This document shows positions 1 through 7,616 of a DNA stretch of 7,616 nt, in pieces; positions within the stretch are counted from its first letter, which is position 1; each line of letters begins with the position of its first letter. The position numbers and the translations under genes are program-made. Source of the stretch: a virus (lineage: Duplodnaviria > Heunggongvirae > Uroviricota > Caudoviricetes); the IMG/VR virus record IMGVR_UViG_2695420643_000016, positions 1 through 7,616 of that record; one strand, 5' to 3'. The notes beneath the pieces are model-generated. The model saw only the letters and a list, made by a program, of their open reading frames with translations. It ran no database searches and was not told the origin of the DNA.

Positions 1-96
1 GCAGAAGCAGAAAAAGCTTATTATGCTTCCATCGGAAACGATGATCTGGCAGCCTGAGTTCACAGATAAAATACTCTCCAGGAAACCCGGGGCGGT

Positions 97-204
97 TCAC
101 TGGCAGGCCTGAATCACAAACTGGCAGGCCACAATCTTTCCGCGCACAACATCACGGGCATACTGATTGGCAGCATTTACGTTGGGGTAAGATTTCCGGC
201 TCAT
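97..204 (-). pseudogene. N-terminal fragment of a large terminase (TerL-like), 35 codons ending in an in-frame TGA; probable truncated or disrupted terL
   Basis: ATG at 202..204 overlaps the terS stop (ATGA). Translation is [35 protein letters not shown] then TGA at 97..99. The Y-A-x-D-V-x-x-G-K-I-x-A-C ... A-C-Q pattern matches my recollection of the N-terminus of PF03354/COG4626 large terminases, where R-x-L-x-D-L normally follows. No frame in 1..96 continues that motif. A single-base misreading on my side cannot be excluded. Confidence 0.35.
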
Positions 205-695
205 GACTCGATGATTTTCAGAAACGGGTTAGTGGCTTTCTTCTGCCCCGCCAGGCCAATCAGACGCTGGCGGCTGCTGGGGTCGAGTCCGAGCATTGCC
301 CCCGTGCTGCTCATCTCGGACTCCTGTTCTTTTTTGGCGGTCAGCTCCGGATTTTTGACCCTGCCGCCCATTGCACCGGTGATGGTGTTGCCCTGTATGG
401 CAATATTTTTCACGGCACGTCGCCAGAACTCATAGGCCACGCACCACCGCTCAAGCACCGCGAGGTCAGTCACGCACAACAGGCCCTGACCGCAGAGTTC
501 TTTGGTTGTCAGTTGCCACATGATCGTGGCGAGAGGGAGATTTTCTTCTGCGAACCACTCCGGTGGCTCAACACCTTTGATGGGCGTAAAAACAGGTTCA
601 TCTTTATTCAGGGCTCGCTTGCCGGGGTTTCCGGCCAGCGCCTTGCGCGCCGTTGGCTTGGGGCGACGCCCGGAACGCCCCGCCGTTCCAGCCAT
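201..695 (-). CDS. terminase small subunit (P27-like family)
   Basis: Track ORF 201..704. Product [27 protein letters not shown]... resembles P27-family TerS as I recall it. The track start is GTG at 704; the in-frame ATG at 693..695 is preceded by AGGAG and is the likelier start. It sits immediately downstream of the HNH gene and is coupled to the next ORF by an ATGA overlap. Confidence 0.8.
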
Positions 696-745
696 ATGCG
701 GCACTCCTGGTTAAATTTCATTTTTCGCGGGTATAAAAAAACGAT

Positions 746-794
746 GGGGCGGGCAGTCCGGAAGACGTCAGGTCACAGGGATTTGACCCGCCCC
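746..794. other. candidate cos (cohesive end) region between the HNH and terS genes
   Basis: G-rich inverted repeat GGGGCGGG (746..753) and CCCGCCCC (787..794) flank a 33-bp core containing a GACGTC palindrome, preceded by an A7 tract. The GGGGCGGGCAGTCC string loosely resembles the lambda-type cohesive end GGGCGGCGACCT. The gene order HNH-cos-terS is the known HK97-type packaging arrangement. Confidence 0.3.
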
Positions 795-820
795 TCCCCT
801 CTTGCAGTGGGAACTGGTTC

Positions 821-1171
821 TTACTTCAGCCGTTCACGGGCCGTCTTCGCCTTATGACACGGCCAGCACAGGCTCTGCAGATTGCTGTCGGCATCAGTGC
901 CGCCATGCGCTTTAGGGATGATGTGGTCAACGGTTTTCGCCTCGCGCACCACACCGGCACGCAAACACAACTGACACAGGCCTTTGTCACGCTTTAGTAC
1001 ACGCCCCCGGATAACATCCCATTTCGAACCATAACCGCGCTGGTGTCGGGACTGGCCTGGCTTGTATTGCTTCCAGCCCTCGCTTTTGTGGCTTTCGCAA
1101 TAACCTGACGGGTCAGTCGTGGTATGGCGGCAGCCGCGAACTCGGCAGGCTTTTGGGGTTCGTGGTGGCAT
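821..1171 (-). CDS. HNH homing-type endonuclease, phage packaging-associated
   Basis: Track ORF 821..1270 begins with TTG; the in-frame ATG at 1169..1171 (MPPRTPKACRVRGCRH...) is preceded by GGAG at 5-nt spacing. The product has CxxC...C...H and DHIIPKAHGG...N...CWPCH motifs typical of HNH nucleases. It lies directly upstream of terS. Confidence 0.8.
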   Translation of the reverse strand: MPPRTPKACRVRGCRHTTTDPSGYCESHKSEGWKQYKPGQSRHQRGYGSKWDVIRGRVLKRDKGLCQLCLRAGVVREAKTVDHIIPKAHGGTDADSNLQSLCWPCHKAKTARERLK

Positions 1172-1292
1172 ATGTACTCCAATGAAGAAGCTACCGACAT
1201 AGCCTCCTCCATTCGTCGTGAAACTATTTTCATCTACCCAGTAATGAATTCTTTGAAGAGTCGAGATCAATACAACTCACTGATGGGAGAGG

Positions 1293-1314
1293 CTTGCCTC
1301 ACGCGTGAGGCAAG
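1293..1314. repeat. perfect 22-bp palindrome CTTGCCTCACGCGTGAGGCAAG (possible stem-loop or protein-binding site)
   Basis: Read directly from the sequence. It lies in the roughly 290-bp gap between the Rz1 stop and the HNH start. The T-rich flank TTTCCTGTTTGATTT is on the plus-strand side only, so it is not a canonical terminator for the minus-strand late transcript. Confidence 0.5.
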
Positions 1315-1394
1315 TTTCCTGTTTGATTTACTGGACAGTATAGGGGGGCAGAATGCCTTCCTCACTCGAATAACATCAATTAAGGAGGTTCAAC

Positions 1395-1517
1395 ATGTTT
1401 CATTCCACAAGTCATCAGGCTGTAATTATGGTAGCATCAGTTTGTGCCACATACCTTTTCCGCTTCACTTTGAGTCTGATTCATTTCTACCTGACCGGCT
1501 CGCCTCTATCTTTCTAA
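1395..1517 (+). CDS. hypothetical 40-aa hydrophobic peptide (possible small membrane protein)
   Basis: A consensus Shine-Dalgarno TAAGGAGGT sits 6 nt upstream of ATG 1395. Translation is MFHSTSHQAVIMVASVCATYLFRFTLSLIHFYLTGSPLSF with one predicted transmembrane span. It is in the opposite-strand position that the bor moron occupies in lambda. It overlaps the 3' end of Rz1 antisense and no convincing promoter was found. Confidence 0.2.
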   Translation: MFHSTSHQAVIMVASVCATYLFRFTLSLIHFYLTGSPLSF

Positions 1518-1740
1518 TCCCCGCTTTGTCAATATTGCATTGTCCCAACGCTGACAACAGACTCACATTCAACTCCAGACTGGCACCATACGTCAGCGGA
1601 TTGGGTATAAACGGTACAGGAGTATCAGAAGTCAGGCTGGCTGGCAGTGGTGCCACCGGAGCGCTCACGTAAACCGTTCGCGAATTTCCGCAACCGGTCA
1701 GCAGCGACAGCAGGCACAGGACGTGAAGCACAATCATCAT
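1465..1740 (-). CDS. Rz1: o-spanin (Rz1-like outer-membrane lipoprotein), overlapped architecture
   Basis: Tandem ATG-ATG at 1735..1740 in the +1 frame inside Rz. Product MMIVLHVLCLLSLLTGC... has a lipoprotein signal with lipobox LLTG-C followed by a proline-rich mature region. The frame stays open 160 bp past the Rz stop. Confidence 0.55.
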   Translation of the reverse strand: MMIVLHVLCLLSLLTGCGNSRTVYVSAPVAPLPASLTSDTPVPFIPNPLTYGASLELNVSLLSALGQCNIDKAGIRKIEASRSGRNESDSK

Positions 1741-2017
1741 CCGCAACAGCCACTTTGATATCTTCCTGGGTTCTCTGTGACTCCAGTGTGATCTGCTGTT
1801 TTGCATGCTGGTTAGCCTCCAGAACTGTATTGACGATTTGCAGTGATTGCAGGACGTTATTGGTAATGACAGTTGCCGATTTGGCATTTTGTACAGCCTC
1901 ATCAGCACGTTTCTTTTCGTGCTGATATTTGCTGTAGTAGTGGTTGGCAGACCAGATGAAAGAACCGATGACAGTAAAGAAGAATGCAGCGATAACCAAC
2001 TTATAGCTCAACTTCAT
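1625..2017 (-). CDS. Rz: i-spanin (Rz-like), N-terminal TM anchor plus coiled-coil periplasmic domain
   Basis: 130-aa ORF directly after the endolysin, overlapping its 3' end by 17 nt. N-terminal hydrophobic segment LVIAAFFFTVIGSFIW followed by a charged, helix-prone sequence. Rz1 is embedded or overlapped in the +1 frame. Confidence 0.75.
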   Translation of the reverse strand: MKLSYKLVIAAFFFTVIGSFIWSANHYYSKYQHEKKRADEAVQNAKSATVITNNVLQSLQIVNTVLEANQHAKQQITLESQRTQEDIKVAVADDDCASRPVPAVAADRLRKFANGLRERSGGTTASQPDF

Positions 2018-2477
2018 TTACCACCCCACCAGCCTCTTTAAACCGGGCAATCAGATCACCGATTTTATGTTCATACTGACCGTAACCAGCACCCGGCAAT
2101 GAAGCCCAGATATTGCTGCAACGGTCGATTGCCTGACGGATATCACCGCGATCAATCATCGGCAAAGCGCCACGCTCTTTAATCTGTTGCAATGCCACAG
2201 CGTCCTGACTTTTGGGAGAGAAGTCTTTCAGGCCAAGCTGATTACGGTAGGCATCCCACCAACGGGAAAGAAGCTGGTAACGTCCGGCGGCTGTTGATTT
2301 GAGTTTGGGGTTTAGCGTGACAAGTTTGCGAGGGTGATCGGAGTAATCAGTAAACATTTCACCACCGACAATAACATCATAACCGTGGTTACGTGTCGGT
2401 TGTCGCCCGTTATCCGTTCCTTCTGACCATGCAACCATATCCAGGAAAGCTTTACGCTGGGAATTTAGTACCTGCAT
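2001..2477 (-). CDS. R: endolysin, lambda R-type lytic transglycosylase
   Basis: 158-aa product MQVLNSQRKAFLDMVAWSEGTDNGRQPTRNHGYDVIVGGEMFTDYSDHPRKLVTLNPKLKS... is near-identical over most of its length to phage lambda R as I recall it, including the catalytic E in the WSEGTD motif. It sits between the holin and Rz. Confidence 0.92.
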   Translation of the reverse strand: MQVLNSQRKAFLDMVAWSEGTDNGRQPTRNHGYDVIVGGEMFTDYSDHPRKLVTLNPKLKSTAAGRYQLLSRWWDAYRNQLGLKDFSPKSQDAVALQQIKERGALPMIDRGDIRQAIDRCSNIWASLPGAGYGQYEHKIGDLIARFKEAGGVVNEVEL

Positions 2478-2480
2478 AAA

Positions 2481-2807
2481 TTACTCCTTAGAGCCACCAA
2501 ACTTATTACCGATTACTCTCATTGCAGCCCCACGAATAGCATCGACCCCGATCAGCCCAACGCCGCCACCAATGGCAACAGAAAGAGATTTAGGCCATCC
2601 GACATACTCAAGAGCGGATGCAAAAGTCAGCGTCAGAGCACCACAGAGCAAAATCTCGAGCGTTTTTCGTTTCCAGCCACCACCACCGCCAAAATAGGCA
2701 ATGCGCAAGCCAGCCATAACGATCGACATAATCACTGCGCCCAGCGGTGTGTCTCCACGCCACCAGCTCTGGACCAACTCCAGCCAGGTATTTGGGTTAT
2801 GAGGCAT
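2481..2807 (-). CDS. holin (class I-like, three predicted TM segments)
   Basis: 108-aa ORF immediately upstream of the endolysin with a 3-nt gap. Three hydrophobic stretches (LGAVIMSIVMAGLRIAYF, LEILLCGALTLTFASALEYV, LSVAIGGGVGLIGVDAI) and a charged C-terminus. The size matches lambda S. Confidence 0.7.
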   Translation of the reverse strand: MPHNPNTWLELVQSWWRGDTPLGAVIMSIVMAGLRIAYFGGGGGWKRKTLEILLCGALTLTFASALEYVGWPKSLSVAIGGGVGLIGVDAIRGAAMRVIGNKFGGSKE

Positions 2808-2959
2808 TTGTAGTTATCTCTCACCTCGCTGATACAGCAGGTGCAAATTGAGGGAACATCATGTACCGCAAATCAGAAGCGGAAACATCAAAGAAGCCGA
2901 ACCGATGGAGAACTGCGGAATAGGCCAGGACCAACGAATCCCCAGCCACAGAAACGACA

Positions 2960-2981
2960 AAACCCGCTCGACGGCGGGTTT
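2960..2981 (-). terminator. tR'-like intrinsic terminator in the late leader upstream of the holin
   Basis: On the minus strand, AAACCCGC-CGUCGA-GCGGGUUU (8-bp stem, 6-nt loop) is followed by UGUCGUUUCUG, a hairpin plus U-rich tract. It lies about 150 nt upstream of the holin start, where lambdoid phages place tR' between pR' and S. Confidence 0.4.
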
Positions 2982-3103
2982 AAGCTGTGTGGCGAAGTAA
3001 CCACTCTTAACAGATTACAATGTTTTTTGCGGAACGCGCTAATGATTTCCTCTTTTTTTTGTTGTATTTTTCACACGGTTGCTAAAATTATTTCGGATCG
3101 ATA
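2982..3103 (-). promoter_or_regulatory. inferred late promoter (pR') and Q-utilisation region, exact elements unresolved
   Basis: Inferred from position between the tR'-like hairpin and the cassette. The only -10-like hexamer on the minus strand is TGTAAT (plus coordinates 3015..3020) with a weak -35. No element could be assigned with confidence. Confidence 0.25.
3059..3088 (+). promoter_or_regulatory. candidate sigma70 promoter for the plus-strand cassette
   Basis: TTGTTG (3059..3064), 18-bp spacer, TAAAAT (3083..3088), about 15 nt upstream of ATG 3104. It is embedded in a T-rich tract that includes a T8 homopolymer at 3053..3060. The leader would be very short and has a weak SD. Confidence 0.25.
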
Positions 3104-4045
3104 ATGAGTACAGAAAATAAGAATAAAACCAGGCGAGTGAGAGTTGGTTTTTTCACTGGTAATGGAAGCAAAAAAGATGGCACATCTGCTGCAAAACTAG
3201 CCTTTGAGCAAATGACCACAGCAGATACTGTAACTTTTCCAATAACTTACACAACAGACACCCCAAATCGAGGGTTAAAGTTAGTTATTCTTCAAAAAGA
3301 TACCACACTGCAATGTTACTTTGGTTACGTATCGTGGAGAAGGGAATGCCTACTACCGTTCATCGAGGATGCTACAGGTAGTGAGAGAACAATTCCTTTA
3401 AATGATAAAGATTCTGTAGTTGAAAGAACATATTTTATCTATTACTACGAAACGGACTTATTAGCTATGACCCTCAACCATATAGGGCCCAAAGTAAATG
3501 ATCTGGCATTCATTTTGTATAACAAAACTGATTTAAAAAGCGTCACTTTTGAAGCCATTTGGAAACAAGAGAGCATGAAGGAACTGCTTGAGGACGGAAA
3601 TATCCTACGTAGTTTCGATCTTATAGTTGCTGCTCCAAGAAACTTTAACAAAGCTAATTATAAGATTAAAAACCCTTTAGCTAATGAAATTATTGACATG
3701 GTTGTTGGTATGGGCGGGTCGCATCTAAGATTAAATATGCGAGGTCGGATTCGCCCGAAAAAACAAGGATTTAACTATCTAAAAACTTCTGTCACCGATG
3801 CTATTAAGGAACTACTTGAACTTTTTCCAAAAGGTTCTGGAGGTCTAAAAATTAAAAAAATTGATGTAACAGAGCCATCCAATAGAACGCCCAAAAGTCT
3901 ACTTGACCAAGTATTGGTCAGTACAAAGACAATCATTGTCAAAAGCGGTTATCCATCCGATTCTGATATCAGAACGGCGATGATATCTGCTAAAATTGAT
4001 AACGCGAACTATCTTGCACAGTATGAGCTCGCTAGCAGAGACTAA
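3104..4045 (+). CDS. hypothetical 313-aa soluble protein, first gene of the AT-rich cassette; candidate sensor component of a RexA/RexB-like two-gene defence module
   Basis: Long ORF on the strand opposite the phage late operon. Hand-counted GC is about 33-37% versus about 58% in a flanking phage gene. No signal peptide or TM segment, and no Walker, HxH, DEAD or PD-(D/E)xK motif that I could recognise. It is followed after 21 nt by a membrane-protein gene. Confidence 0.8.
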   Translation: MSTENKNKTRRVRVGFFTGNGSKKDGTSAAKLAFEQMTTADTVTFPITYTTDTPNRGLKLVILQKDTTLQCYFGYVSWRRECLLPFIEDATGSERTIPLNDKDSVVERTYFIYYYETDLLAMTLNHIGPKVNDLAFILYNKTDLKSVTFEAIWKQESMKELLEDGNILRSFDLIVAAPRNFNKANYKIKNPLANEIIDMVVGMGGSHLRLNMRGRIRPKKQGFNYLKTSVTDAIKELLELFPKGSGGLKIKKIDVTEPSNRTPKSLLDQVLVSTKTIIVKSGYPSDSDIRTAMISAKIDNANYLAQYELASRD

Positions 4046-4066
4046 TAACCAAGCATGGAGGACACA

Positions 4067-4516
4067 ATGAGAGAATTAGCCACTTTTCTCTGGAAATGCG
4101 TCCTCTGGATTCTGTTGACCTATGCAGCGACAAAACTGTTTAAACCGATGAAGCATGCTGACGTACTCACAACAGCGGGGGTGCTCTCGACTATATCAGG
4201 CATCCTGTTTGGTTTTGTTCTGGCTGCAATATCTATATTTAGTAGTGCAAACAGCGATAAGGAAGGAGCAATTAATGCCCTTAAGCAAAACAACGTGTTA
4301 CCAACTCTGGTAAATAGATTACTTTCAACAGGGTTAACTCTCATCGTCGCGTGTATATTTCCATTGATAGCGATGTTTCTACCTGATGATGTTATTGTTG
4401 CGGGCAAACCTATTGATTTCCTGTTCATACTGTTAGGCTTATCCTCCCTTATAATTTCGCTATATACCTTCGGAAGGTGTTGGTTAGTGTTACGAAAAAT
4501 CTTCCCCCACTTGTGA
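4067..4516 (+). CDS. hypothetical 149-aa inner-membrane protein with four predicted TM helices; candidate effector of the cassette
   Basis: Track ORF 4055..4516. The ATG at 4067 is preceded by GGAGG at 5-nt spacing; the ATG at 4055 has no SD and would add MEDT. Four hydrophobic segments of about 20 aa each (FLWKCVLWILLTYAATKLF, VLSTISGILFGFVLAAISIF, LLSTGLTLIVACIFPLIAMFL, IDFLFILLGLSSLIISLYTF). Same AT-rich composition as the upstream gene. Confidence 0.8.
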   Translation: MRELATFLWKCVLWILLTYAATKLFKPMKHADVLTTAGVLSTISGILFGFVLAAISIFSSANSDKEGAINALKQNNVLPTLVNRLLSTGLTLIVACIFPLIAMFLPDDVIVAGKPIDFLFILLGLSSLIISLYTFGRCWLVLRKIFPHL

Positions 4517-4545
4517 CAGGTTGGCCTCATATGGGGCCAACCTGT
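4516..4545. repeat. stem-loop (11-bp perfect stem, 8-nt loop) at the convergent junction between the cassette and the Q gene
   Basis: ACAGGTTGGCC (4516..4526) pairs with GGCCAACCTGT (4535..4545). It begins at the stop codon of the membrane-protein gene and ends 7 nt before the Q stop. No U-tract on either strand. Confidence 0.45.
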
Positions 4546-4551
4546 GCAACC

Positions 4552-4917
4552 CTAAGCGTCCATTTCAAGGTTAACATCCAACATTGAAAGGCAACCATCA
4601 ATAAATCCTTCGGCTAGTTGTATTTCTATGCGTACCAATTTTTCATCCTTTCCACGCACCTTTGCAATCTTACGCTTGGATATTCTGTATAAATAATGTG
4701 CCACAAGCAGCGAGTGCTCATCTGGCTTTTTTTGCTTTAGACGAGCAAGACAACCTTCAATAATTAATGCATCACTATCTGAACAAGCCTGACGTGTTTT
4801 GCTTGTGTAGGGAAGAAGCCCCTTAAACCCAGCAGCTATAGGCGAATAGTCTACTCCAGAACTATCACTCGCCGCCCATGCTCCCCAACGCTCCAGAACC
4901 ATCTGAATATCACGCAT
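4552..4917 (-). CDS. late-gene antiterminator Q, short QuuD-like family
   Basis: Product MRDIQMVLERWGAWAA...AAGFKGL...LEMDA matches my recollection of the DLP12 Q homologue QuuD in its N-terminus and overall pattern. The track start is TTG at 4920; the ATG at 4915..4917 is preceded by GGAG. It sits between the nin-like genes and the lysis cassette. Confidence 0.7.
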   Translation of the reverse strand: MRDIQMVLERWGAWAASDSSGVDYSPIAAGFKGLLPYTSKTRQACSDSDALIIEGCLARLKQKKPDEHSLLVAHYLYRISKRKIAKVRGKDEKLVRIEIQLAEGFIDGCLSMLDVNLEMDA

Positions 4918-4934
4918 CAACTTTCTCCACCAAA

Positions 4935-5930
4935 TCAGGCCAACACCCCAATCGCCAGCGCGCGATCGATAAAACGAAATATCAGCTCCAGTTGGGAGCC
5001 ATACTTCTCTTCAAATGCCACGGTATCCGCATGCAGCTCGTCGTGATGCTTTCTGCACAAAGGCAACACAAAGAGGTCATGCGCTTTTGTACCCATTCCA
5101 CCCTGACCGTGACCTATCAGGTGGTGGGGATCATCAGCAGGCTTTCCACAACATGCACACGGCTGTGTCTTAACCCAGCGCGTGTACTTTTCATTAACCC
5201 AGCGGCGGCGTTTTGGTCGTAACATAAAAGACTCCAGCGACTCCGGATCCACTTTCAGCGCCAGCACCTTTTTCGCTTTATCCTGGATAATGCTGGTGGC
5301 AGGAACCGAAGGCACAAGGTCACTTTCCCGGGTGACCGCCTGCACAACAGGCTTCGGTAATCTCAGTGCCTTACGGGCTGCACTTTCCGGTAAGGCATCC
5401 GCCAGGTCATTACGAATCAGCCACCAGCACAGTTCCGGTATTGTCACAACGTGACTGTCATCAAAACCGAGATCCCGACGCACAACAGACAACACCCAGC
5501 GGGCACAGTTATCCGTTGCCATTGATTCCAGCCGTTCCGTGAACTGATCGCGCAGCTGGTTATCGCAGTGCCAGCACAAACGGATTGCGCCCGGAGCGTG
5601 TCGCATTGTTGTCATGTTCTCGCTGTGCCAGTCGGAATGAGGCCACTGGCAGCCTTTTTCACGAAGTAACCAGCTTTCAAGACATTCCACGCCACCAGCA
5701 CGACGGATCACTGCCTCATTGCGGAATACGGCCCGAACGGCAGGATCATCCGCCAGCGGTTGTGATGCCGCCGGAACGGCACCACTGGCGAAAGATGAAT
5801 AACGTTCCGGCTCAGGCTCCAGCAGGACACGCCCCTGCATAAACAGGGGCATCAACTCTGAACCTGGCCTGAACAATACGATCCCCATACGCGGGGCAAT
5901 TTCAGGGGTCAGTAGTGCTCTCACGGTCAC
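4935..5930 (-). CDS. DUF968-like prophage protein with C-terminal zinc-ribbon/HNH-like motif
   Basis: 331-aa ORF directly upstream of Q, the position YdfU (DUF968) occupies next to the Q gene in the Qin prophage. C-terminal CACCGK...DPHH...GGMG.K...LPLCRKHHDELH motif. The track start is GTG, 1 nt after the stop of the upstream gene. Confidence 0.55.
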   Translation of the reverse strand: MTVRALLTPEIAPRMGIVLFRPGSELMPLFMQGRVLLEPEPERYSSFASGAVPAASQPLADDPAVRAVFRNEAVIRRAGGVECLESWLLREKGCQWPHSDWHSENMTTMRHAPGAIRLCWHCDNQLRDQFTERLESMATDNCARWVLSVVRRDLGFDDSHVVTIPELCWWLIRNDLADALPESAARKALRLPKPVVQAVTRESDLVPSVPATSIIQDKAKKVLALKVDPESLESFMLRPKRRRWVNEKYTRWVKTQPCACCGKPADDPHHLIGHGQGGMGTKAHDLFVLPLCRKHHDELHADTVAFEEKYGSQLELIFRFIDRALAIGVLA

Positions 5931-5931
5931 C

Positions 5932-6741
5932 TCAATGAACGGTATCGAGCAGCTTTAACAGCTCAGGGAATCGGGATTCGAAGAAATGCGGCTGCGTCTC
6001 GCGCGGATTTGCGGGACTGGTGATGTTCTTGCCGAACATGCAGCCTTTCGCTGTCAGCGACCAGAATTTTTTGATGTTGTTAATCGCGGTACGGCTGTAT
6101 CGTTCGCGCTGCTCGACGATCCCCAGCTTCACCATCTGGTGATATGCCTGATTAGCCGTCAGGCGGATACCATACTGTTTCAGCAGTGCACTCAGTGACA
6201 GCGTAGGGCGACTTGAGCCATCGTGTGCATCAGCAGGAGCATCAATGGCATAGCGCGGTGCCAGATTCGGTAAGCCAACAGCCTCCTGGAGTTTCTGACA
6301 GGCCCCAAGCACTGAAGAGTTAGACAGGTTTAACTCCCTGCGCATAAAGTCCAGCAGAATCACTCCAGCCTGCATCTTGTCAGCAGCCTGCCCGGATAAT
6401 TTTTCCGGTGCGCTGGTTACCATATCGAAAGTACGGATCACCTTCAGATGGAATGACGGGCTGATCCACATTGCATAGGCATACACCAGTTCTTTGCAGA
6501 CATACGTCCCCTGGTTATTTCCGCCATTAATGACGCTAACTGGTTGATTTTGTTCCAGAGGCGGAATTCCACCCTCGGTGAAAAGTTGTTCAATCAATTC
6601 ACAGGTTTGCTTATTGGAGAGCCAGTATTTCGGGCGGTTTTTTTGTTCTCCCCCGGCTGCCCTGTGCAGATCGTTCAGGCTGTAACGCCCATAAGCATCA
6701 CGACGAACTTCAATACCATCAATGACCATCAGATTATTCAT
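5932..6741 (-). CDS. KilA-N domain protein with a C-terminal domain of unknown function
   Basis: N-terminal region MNNLMVIDGIEVRRDAYGRYSLNDLHRAAGG...KYWLSNKQT...VCKELVYAYAMWISPSFHLKVI resembles the KilA-N DNA-binding domain. The track start at 6774 has no SD and overlaps rusA; the ATG at 6739..6741 is preceded by AGGAGA and is preferred. Confidence 0.75.
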   Translation of the reverse strand: MNNLMVIDGIEVRRDAYGRYSLNDLHRAAGGEQKNRPKYWLSNKQTCELIEQLFTEGGIPPLEQNQPVSVINGGNNQGTYVCKELVYAYAMWISPSFHLKVIRTFDMVTSAPEKLSGQAADKMQAGVILLDFMRRELNLSNSSVLGACQKLQEAVGLPNLAPRYAIDAPADAHDGSSRPTLSLSALLKQYGIRLTANQAYHQMVKLGIVEQRERYSRTAINNIKKFWSLTAKGCMFGKNITSPANPRETQPHFFESRFPELLKLLDTVH

Positions 6742-6760
6742 ACTTCGTTTCTCCTCTTGA

Positions 6761-7150
6761 TCAGGCGGCTGCACCCGCCGTTTTCTCGTACTTACTGATA
6801 GTGATCTCGACCTTCCCTTCCGGGATAACCGGTCCCCACTCCACCAGCATTCTTTTCACCTGGCTGTCGTCTTCCCACACACCCGCGTGAGTCAGGGCGT
6901 CAAACAGCGCCTTGTTATAGTTGTCCAGATCGCGGATCCGGTTATCCGGAGGAAACAACACGATCTCCACTGAAGCAGGTGCTGACGTTGGTTTCGGCAG
7001 ACGACGTAACTGCTCAACTATTGCTGTGCACGCCGCACTCTGGAATTTTCGCCCCGCCGCGCTTATCAGGCTCTTACCAGCAAACGCCCCTTTGTTGGGG
7101 TGTCGCCAGTACGTGTTCACGCTGGGCGGAAAAGGCAGGATCAGCTTCAT
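6761..7150 (-). CDS. rusA: Holliday junction resolvase RusA
   Basis: 129-aa product with the RusA signature region DLDNYNKALFDALTHAGVWEDDSQV, which resembles E. coli RusA (DLDN..KA.FDALT.AG.W.DD.QV). Typical nin-region position. Its start overlaps the stop of the upstream gene (ATGA). Confidence 0.85.
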   Translation of the reverse strand: MKLILPFPPSVNTYWRHPNKGAFAGKSLISAAGRKFQSAACTAIVEQLRRLPKPTSAPASVEIVLFPPDNRIRDLDNYNKALFDALTHAGVWEDDSQVKRMLVEWGPVIPEGKVEITISKYEKTAGAAA

Positions 7151-7473
7151 GCTTTCAGGCCTCTCTCATGTAACCAGTGGGTTGCACGCAGCCTTGCGTT
7201 TTCCTCACCGGCAAGCAGTGAGCGGATAATCCCGACCGCCTCGCTGTCGTCGTCCTTCACCGCGGTATGAAGCGTTATCCCCCGGGCCACGCCACGCTTT
7301 ATCGTGATGACGCCTTTTTTCTCCAGTGCGCGAAGATGCTCCACCGCTGCATTCACTGAACGGTATCCCAGCATGGTTGCCACCTCCTGATTGGTTGGCG
7401 GGAAGCCACGTTCTTTCTGGTAAGAAATCAGCATATCCAGCACCTGCTGCTGGCATTGAGTTAATGTCGTCAT
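7147..7473 (-). CDS. LexA-family N-terminal DNA-binding domain protein (winged helix), no peptidase domain
   Basis: Product MTTLTQCQQQVLDMLISYQKERGFPPTNQEVATMLGYRSVNAAVEHLRALEKKGVITI...ARGI parallels the LexA N-terminal domain (LT.RQ.EV...I......G.PPT..EIA..LG..S.NAA.EHL.AL..KG.I). At 108 aa it is too short to carry the S24 peptidase domain. Confidence 0.8.
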   Translation of the reverse strand: MTTLTQCQQQVLDMLISYQKERGFPPTNQEVATMLGYRSVNAAVEHLRALEKKGVITIKRGVARGITLHTAVKDDDSEAVGIIRSLLAGEENARLRATHWLHERGLKA

Positions 7474-7616
7474 GCCGCCATCTCCCTGACCAGTTTTTCT
7501 GCCTGCTGGCGAACCTGCGCCAGAAACGCCTCACCACATGCCTCAAGTTCATCGCGCCCGATGTAGCTGATTGCCGGTCCCTTCCAGGTCTTGTCGAAAA
7601 CAGCAATAGCACCAGC
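7470..7616 (-). CDS. 3' end of a gene of unknown function running off the right edge of the window
   Basis: Open frame from the window edge, translated C-terminus ...AGAIAVFDKTWKGPAISYIGRDELEACGEAFLAQVRQQAEKLVREMAA, ending at TGA 7470..7472, which overlaps the next gene's ATG (ATGA). It is in a different frame from the spurious Arg-rich track ORF 7205..7612. Confidence 0.5.
   Translation of the reverse strand, partial: AGAIAVFDKTWKGPAISYIGRDELEACGEAFLAQVRQQAEKLVREMAA

Follow-up and report, generated by a model that had tools for sequence, protein, structure and literature searches.

Phage HK97 has 10-nt 3′ overhangs, and cleavage of its cos site is stimulated by the HNH protein gp74 (PMC9410871, PMC11331095). 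For the length and polarity of these overhangs we follow the Figure 1 legend of PMC9410871 together with PMC11331095; the discussion of the former paper swaps the overhang lengths of lambda and HK97. The HK97 small terminase subunit (TerS) binds at +15 to +29 (CTAACCCGATTTTTT), where a C:G cluster is joined to an A-tract (PMC11331095). Zinc-ribbon HNH proteins encoded next to cos in phages gamma, GVE2, phi105, Bth193 and Lrm1 are strand-specific nickases that cut CG^GT, equivalent to AC^CG on the other strand (PMC3592412, Xu and Gupta). In Shigella phage SfI, outward run-off sequencing on virion DNA left a 10-nt gap with respect to the prophage, 5′-TGCCCGCCCC-3′, and cos packaging was concluded (PMC3636060, Sun et al. 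2013); the authors contrast SfI with the pac phages Sf6 and SfX (PMC3636060). In the record of the Stx2e phage phiP27 (AJ298298.1), the homologous sequence CGCCCGCCCC is annotated as 'cos-site' (misc_feature 21806-21815).

Here, we compare with these systems a 7,616-nucleotide stretch of viral DNA (IMG/VR record IMGVR_UViG_2695420643_000016, positions 1 to 7,616), referred to below as the window. An earlier note, made from the letters of the window, had proposed a candidate cos site between an HNH endonuclease gene and terS, and this proposal was borne out. With a probability of about 0.93, the segment from approximately 713 to 801, in minus-strand orientation, constitutes the cos region of a prophage of the SfI/SfV/phiP27 type that packages its DNA in the manner of HK97. 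The packaging set consists of a TerS of the P27 family, a large terminase subunit (TerL) of the HK97 type and an accessory HNH nickase. The feature is already known, its cos having been mapped by experiment in the near-identical phage SfI.

Gene content of the window

The window holds the late region of a lambdoid prophage in reverse orientation, with the late genes on the minus strand. These comprise genes for a Q antiterminator (4552-4920), a holin (2481-2807), a lysozyme (2001-2477) and Rz (1625-2017), followed by a gene for an HNH endonuclease of the zinc-ribbon nickase class (821-1171; Pfam HNH, E 2e-16), a P27-family terS (201-695; Pfam Terminase_4, E 4e-20; TIGR01558, E 3e-20) and the first ~35 codons only of terL (100-204). 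The end of an IS3-family insertion sequence occupies positions 1-99 and interrupts terL. Following the annotation of the homologous SfI gene, we let terS start with the ATG at 695; an AGGAG ribosome-binding site precedes it. With this start, the gap between the HNH gene and terS spans 125 nt (696-820), and the 115 bp given in the earlier note match a start at the upstream GTG at 704.

The HNH protein shares 38% sequence identity with HK97 gp74 over 59 amino acids (E 3e-10), and its best match among solved structures is the HNH protein of phage GVE2 (5h0m), to which it aligns over its full length with an E value of 9.7e-12. By analogy with these proteins, we predict that it acts as an accessory factor in cos cleavage. 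TerS is 98-99% identical to the TerS proteins of SfII and SfV. It shows no sequence similarity to HK97 gp1 in BLASTP, Pfam, hhalign with a 29-sequence profile or a profile search of the PDB. As only ~35 codons of terL lie in the window, the assignment of TerL to the HK97 type was made through its intact SfI orthologue, which shares 26% identity with HK97 gp2 (E 1e-30) and has the same Pfam domains, TerL_ATPase and TerL_nuclease.

Other features of the window lie away from the site. Between the Q and holin genes, the plus strand carries two genes (3104-4516) that encode proteins of 313 and 153 amino acids and form a low-GC island of 36-42%, compared with ~50-57% elsewhere. The PHROG families that they match, phrog_7651 and phrog_8552, have no known function, neither gene was matched in PADLOC or Pfam, and the product of the second gene resembles a membrane protein; the pair may be moron or defence cargo. 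Also on the plus strand are a strong 13-bp hairpin with a T-rich tail (1289-1318) and an open reading frame for a hydrophobic 40-residue peptide (1395-1517) with a near-perfect ribosome-binding site (TAAGGAGG). The latter sits between the Rz and HNH genes, antisense to the late operon, and gave no family match; it may encode a small toxin or a membrane peptide.

The cohesive end

The SfI record terminates in the 10-mer TGCCCGCCCC, and this 10-mer is found unchanged in the window on the minus strand at positions 755 to 746, reading GGGGCGGGCA on the plus strand. The SfI-mapped cohesive end (cosN) therefore coincides with window positions 746-755, which is the outcome of the comparison with mapped ends of related phages that the earlier note had proposed as a check. 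From the G-rich box upstream of this end to the start of terS, the gap is nearly identical in SfI, SfV, SfIV, SfII and the Salmonella phage ST64B. The HNH gene and terS, both on the minus strand, flank the site, and the site agrees in both homology and position with a cos mapped on virion DNA.

The ends of other phage records fall in the same register. In the record of Edwardsiella phage EPP-1, revised by its authors with PhageTerm, the first base corresponds by homology to position 745, and the record of the Proteus phage Pm34 has its boundary at the equivalent of 755|756. Once the G-rich box is aligned, the record ends of HK97, phiE125 and D3 follow suit, with the order G box, 24 nt, GAC, 10-mer and, across the junction, RTC; the last 10 nt of the HK97, phiE125 and EPP-1 records align with 746-755. 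The ends of phiE125 and D3 were reportedly mapped as 3′ overhangs. The earlier note's view of an HK97-like, HNH-assisted system with the HNH gene beside cos and terS thus agrees with the common register of SfI, phiP27 and HK97 and with the homology of the HNH protein to gp74 and to the GVE2 protein.

Two groups of records have other ends. Those of SfV (U82619.2) and SfIV (KC814930.1) start 7 nt upstream of the SfI-mapped end, with TCCGGACTGCCCGCCCC, and these deposited ends probably do not mark the true nick. The Burkholderia phages vB_E438, vB_E253 and vB_RY3 were considered as further evidence on ends and left out; their starts are inconsistent and look arbitrary. In EPP-1, the product of terS (L014, 48-653) contains a tandem duplication of ~37 residues in its N-terminal segment (alignment A1).

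Although the earlier note held that the exact nick sites cannot be read from the sequence, they can be placed by homology, putatively at 746|745 on the minus strand and at 755|756 on the plus strand. The cohesive end would be a 10-nt 3′ overhang of sequence TGCCCGCCCC, because neither of the SfI run-off reads contains the 10-mer, as happens only when the 5′ end of each template strand is recessed. This polarity agrees with that of HK97, to whose TerL and HNH proteins the SfI TerL and the present HNH protein are homologous.

Conserved blocks of the cos region

We used an alignment of four TerS sequences as the query to collect 80 loci from one-genome-per-species collections, with TerS identities of 41-100%. 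The loci come from Enterobacterales, Pseudomonas, Burkholderiales, Moraxellaceae and others, and yield 77 distinct upstream regions, which were anchored on CCGCGAAA and aligned essentially without gaps. In packaging order, the conserved blocks are a G-rich box with TCRAA(TC), a spacer, GAC, the C-rich YGCCSGCCYM, RTC and TTTTT-AYACCCGCGAAA-WWTRAAA. The loci were selected and anchored on the pattern CCGCG[AT]A[AT], so the invariance of CCGCG holds by construction. Conservation that does not depend on the anchor is seen on both sides of it, with T in 75-76 of the 77 regions at +7 to +10, A in 68 at +12, C in 63 at +15 and A in 76 at +23.

In the window, the first of these blocks, the G-rich box with TCAAATC, lies at 780-801 (minus strand GAGGGGAGGGGCGGGTCAAATC) and ends 34 nt before the minus-strand nick. 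It is followed on the same strand by a spacer of ~21 nt (759-779) with low information content in the 77-locus alignment and by GAC (756-758), which stands just upstream of the cohesive end and for which the column counts are G 56, A 73 and C 73 of 77. Beyond the cohesive end, the RTC columns are less uniform (G 42 and A 23, T 63, C 61, again of 77). The strongest block, at 713-739 (minus strand TTTTTATACCCGCGAAAAATGAAATTT), covers +7 to +33 from the cut and is the candidate recognition site for TerS. GAC and RTC form a conserved dyad, GAC-N10-GTC/RTC, with the nicks at its inner edges. Around the plus-strand nick the sequence is GGGGCGGGCA^GTCC (755|756), and the family consensus for the bottom strand at this upstream nick, CR^GTC, matches the CG^GT cut by the nickases of the HNH type.

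The G-rich box, GGGGAGGGGSRGGGTCRAAA, keeps a constant distance to the genome end in HK97, phiE125, D3, Pm34, phiP27, SfI and EPP-1, and it is conserved across the 77 diverse loci. Regardless of the type of TerS, this element 34 nt upstream is common to HK97, D3, phiE125, Pm34, phiP27 and SfI and to prophages of Enterobacterales, Pseudomonas, Burkholderiales and Moraxellaceae. A scan of viral_contigs with TerS gave only relatives of 98-100% identity; even at this level of identity, the 30 nt that follow the HNH stop codon and precede the G box are variable, and the stretch from the G box to terS is fixed.

In Photorhabdus, Providencia, Morganella, Caballeronia and Paraburkholderia (loci L115, L116, L118-L120, L130 and L164-L170 of the comparison), 30-70 extra nucleotides are found between the cos block and terS. 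Because these extra nucleotides intervene, the cos block is tied to the cut site and not to the ribosome-binding site of terS. The comparison also returned a contig from a metagenome-assembled genome labelled 'Bacillota bacterium' (L101, JAEWTL010000102.1) that carries an enterobacterial SfI-type terS and cos of 97% identity; this contig is probably a binning contaminant.

The inverted repeat and alternative readings of the gap

The feature that had drawn attention to the site was a G-rich inverted repeat flanking a 33-bp core. It was found exactly as claimed, with the arms GGGGCGGG (746-753) and CCCGCCCC (787-794) perfect over 8 nt and 33 nt apart. When gaps of 125 nt were simulated with a first-order Markov model, allowing spacers of 3-60 nt, 8.5% of them held at least one perfect 8-mer inverted repeat, and about 10-11 further such repeats occur elsewhere in the window; taken alone, the repeat is weak evidence. 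Its left arm lies inside the cohesive end, being that end minus 2 nt, and its right arm lies inside the conserved G-rich box. The 33-bp core does not fit the part of a cut region that had been envisaged for it, being mostly the poorly conserved spacer; it is the left arm, extended by 2 nt, that makes up the cohesive end.

It is very unlikely that the repeat itself specifies cos, whether as a hairpin, as a cruciform or as a symmetric site for a protein, with cleavage taking place in the 33-bp core. The perfect match over 8 bp and its retention in the closest relatives (SfI, SfV, phiP27 and the loci L107/L108) would fit such a role, but the repeat is absent from HK97, D3 and phiE125, whose sites have the same architecture, the cohesive end as mapped falls on the left arm and not in the core, and a repeat of this kind is expected by chance in the simulated fraction of such gaps. 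Moreover, covariation between the arms is absent in the 77 diverse loci, where the longest complement averages 4.75 nt within and 4.74 nt between loci (permutation p 0.47). Because the arms do not covary in these relatives, the repeat is incidental: the G-rich box and the C-rich cohesive end are each conserved on their own, and their complementarity in this lineage is fortuitous. A hairpin in the spacer, suspected by eye in several relatives, showed no excess over shuffled sequences (mean z 0.17). The same arms could be taken for the stem of an intrinsic terminator, or of an RNA hairpin on the late transcript, since on the minus strand they are followed by AUCG and U7, the run of seven T residues thus starting 4 nt after the stem. 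Such a stem would, however, close a loop of 33 nt, the terminator scan made no call at the site, and the fold energy is unexceptional (z −1.33; 22 of 200 shuffles fold equally well or better). Relatives do not preserve the stem but do conserve the T run, which belongs to the downstream block, and the late genes terS, terL and those for the head must be transcribed through the site, all of which makes a terminator at 746-794 highly improbable.

The two remaining readings concern the packaging strategy, and we assign next to no probability to either. If the phage packaged by the headful (pac) mechanism, the conserved gap would be only a regulatory or ribosome-binding region for terS, and part of the conserved block does reach the terS ribosome-binding site. 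Against this stand the position of the block 60-100 nt upstream of terS in several loci, the HK97 cos type of TerL and the defined ends of SfI, by which it was set apart from the pac phages Sf6 and SfX; the possibility, raised at the outset, that the related phages might be headful packagers is thereby answered for SfI. As to a site of the lambda type, the lambda cohesive-end sequence is GGGCGGCGACCT, and a cos of this type would have a 12-nt 5′ overhang and be cut by a Nu1/gpA terminase. The plus-strand string GGGGCGGGCAGTCC is loosely like it, which is the echo of lambda that had been noticed earlier. This likeness proved superficial: the small terminase subunit belongs to the P27 family and not to Nu1, the relatives of TerL are of the HK97 type, an HNH gene is present here and lacking in lambda, the G-rich strand is the one opposite to terS, the reverse of the arrangement in lambda, and the SfI run-off reads leave a 10-nt gap instead of an overlap, pointing to a 10-nt 3′ overhang. 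The reading that we retain is therefore that of an HK97-like cos with its cohesive end at 746-755.

Proposed mechanism of cleavage

On a concatemer, the terminase would cut this HK97-like cos with a stagger of 10 nt and leave TGCCCGCCCC protruding at the 3′ end. As established for HK97, TerS would mark the site, TerL would provide the nuclease and the motor, and the HNH protein would stimulate cos cleavage (PMC9410871, PMC11331095). In the window, the HNH protein may be responsible for the nick at CA^GT on the plus strand (755|756). The second nick would fall at CC^AT, or YM^RTC in the family, and could be made by TerL or again by the HNH protein. By its position in comparison with the HK97 site, the near-invariant ACCCGCGAAA with its flanking runs of T and A, at +7 to +33, is the sequence that TerS would read; this analogy is weak because TerS shows no detectable similarity to HK97 gp1.

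The dyad and the CR^GTC context suggest which strand the HNH protein cuts. The G box, 34 nt upstream, is in a cosQ-like position and may be a further cos subsite. Tentatively, and with considerable doubt, we propose that it is an uncharacterised subsite that acts as a docking or pause signal for TerL or the HNH protein and that, together with GAC-N10-RTC, it would have the HNH protein cutting at CR^GTC. The HK97 papers cited here do not describe this reading of the G box and the nicked strand.

Truncation of terL in this prophage

The resemblance to SfI terL and to intact prophages, including those of Shigella, ends at window position 100, after which the reading frame runs into a stop codon. 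E. coli prophages likewise match the window from position 100 onwards only. Positions 1-99 are 99% identical to a sequence that thousands of E. coli records label 'IS3 family transposase', with the terminal ...CCCGGGGCGGTTCA. Judging by its sequence, terL is truncated at about position 100 by an IS3-family element and the prophage is packaging-defective. As the element would have no large terminase of its own, cleavage of its cos would have to be provided in trans, by a co-resident related helper phage. Shigella genomes can hold two such prophages, as in S. flexneri SFBU0723 (L098 and L099).

Comparison with known systems

For a common prophage family of E. coli and Shigella, the annotation establishes where packaging starts, in which orientation it runs and where the nicks are likely to fall, and it shows that the present copy belongs to an apparently defective prophage that would be packageable only by a helper phage. 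For packaging of the HK97 type it yields predictions on the strand nicked by the HNH protein, on the block read by a P27-family TerS and on the presence of an upstream G box in cos. They add detail to a mechanism that is already known and point to no new one.

Among the systems compared, the cos of lambda (cosQ-cosN-cosB) resembles the present site in its general layout, with staggered nicks at a partly symmetric cosN, a site for the small terminase subunit downstream and a cosQ-like element upstream. It differs in its 12-nt 5′ overhang, its Nu1/gpA terminase, the lack of an HNH protein and the opposite orientation of the G-rich strand with respect to the terminase genes. The likeness to HK97 extends to the individual elements: the G box with TCAAATC, the 34 nt to the cut, GAC, a C-rich 10-mer and, downstream, ACCCG with an A/T-tract are all shared, and both TerL and the HNH protein are homologous. 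The HK97 cohesive end reads CGCCGCCAAA, compared with TGCCCGCCCC here, the ACCCG element is 4 nt further from the cut in HK97, and the two TerS proteins share no detectable sequence similarity.

In phiP27, the 10-mer CGCCCGCCCC is homologous to TGCCCGCCCC and stands in the same register with the same G box, and the site lies between the HNH-like gene L34 and the P27-type terS L35. TerS of phiP27 is only 49% identical to that of the window, and the spacer and the A/T tract differ. Closest of all are SfI, SfV, SfIV and SfII, from which the window is set apart by the IS3-family element that interrupts its terL. At the site itself, the window shows a few substitutions in the variable spacer and, at +1, an A where SfI has a G; SfV and SfIV have this A as well. 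From the G box to the start of terS, these phages are otherwise near-identical to the window, with the same 10-mer, TGCCCGCCCC, between the same flanking HNH gene and terS.
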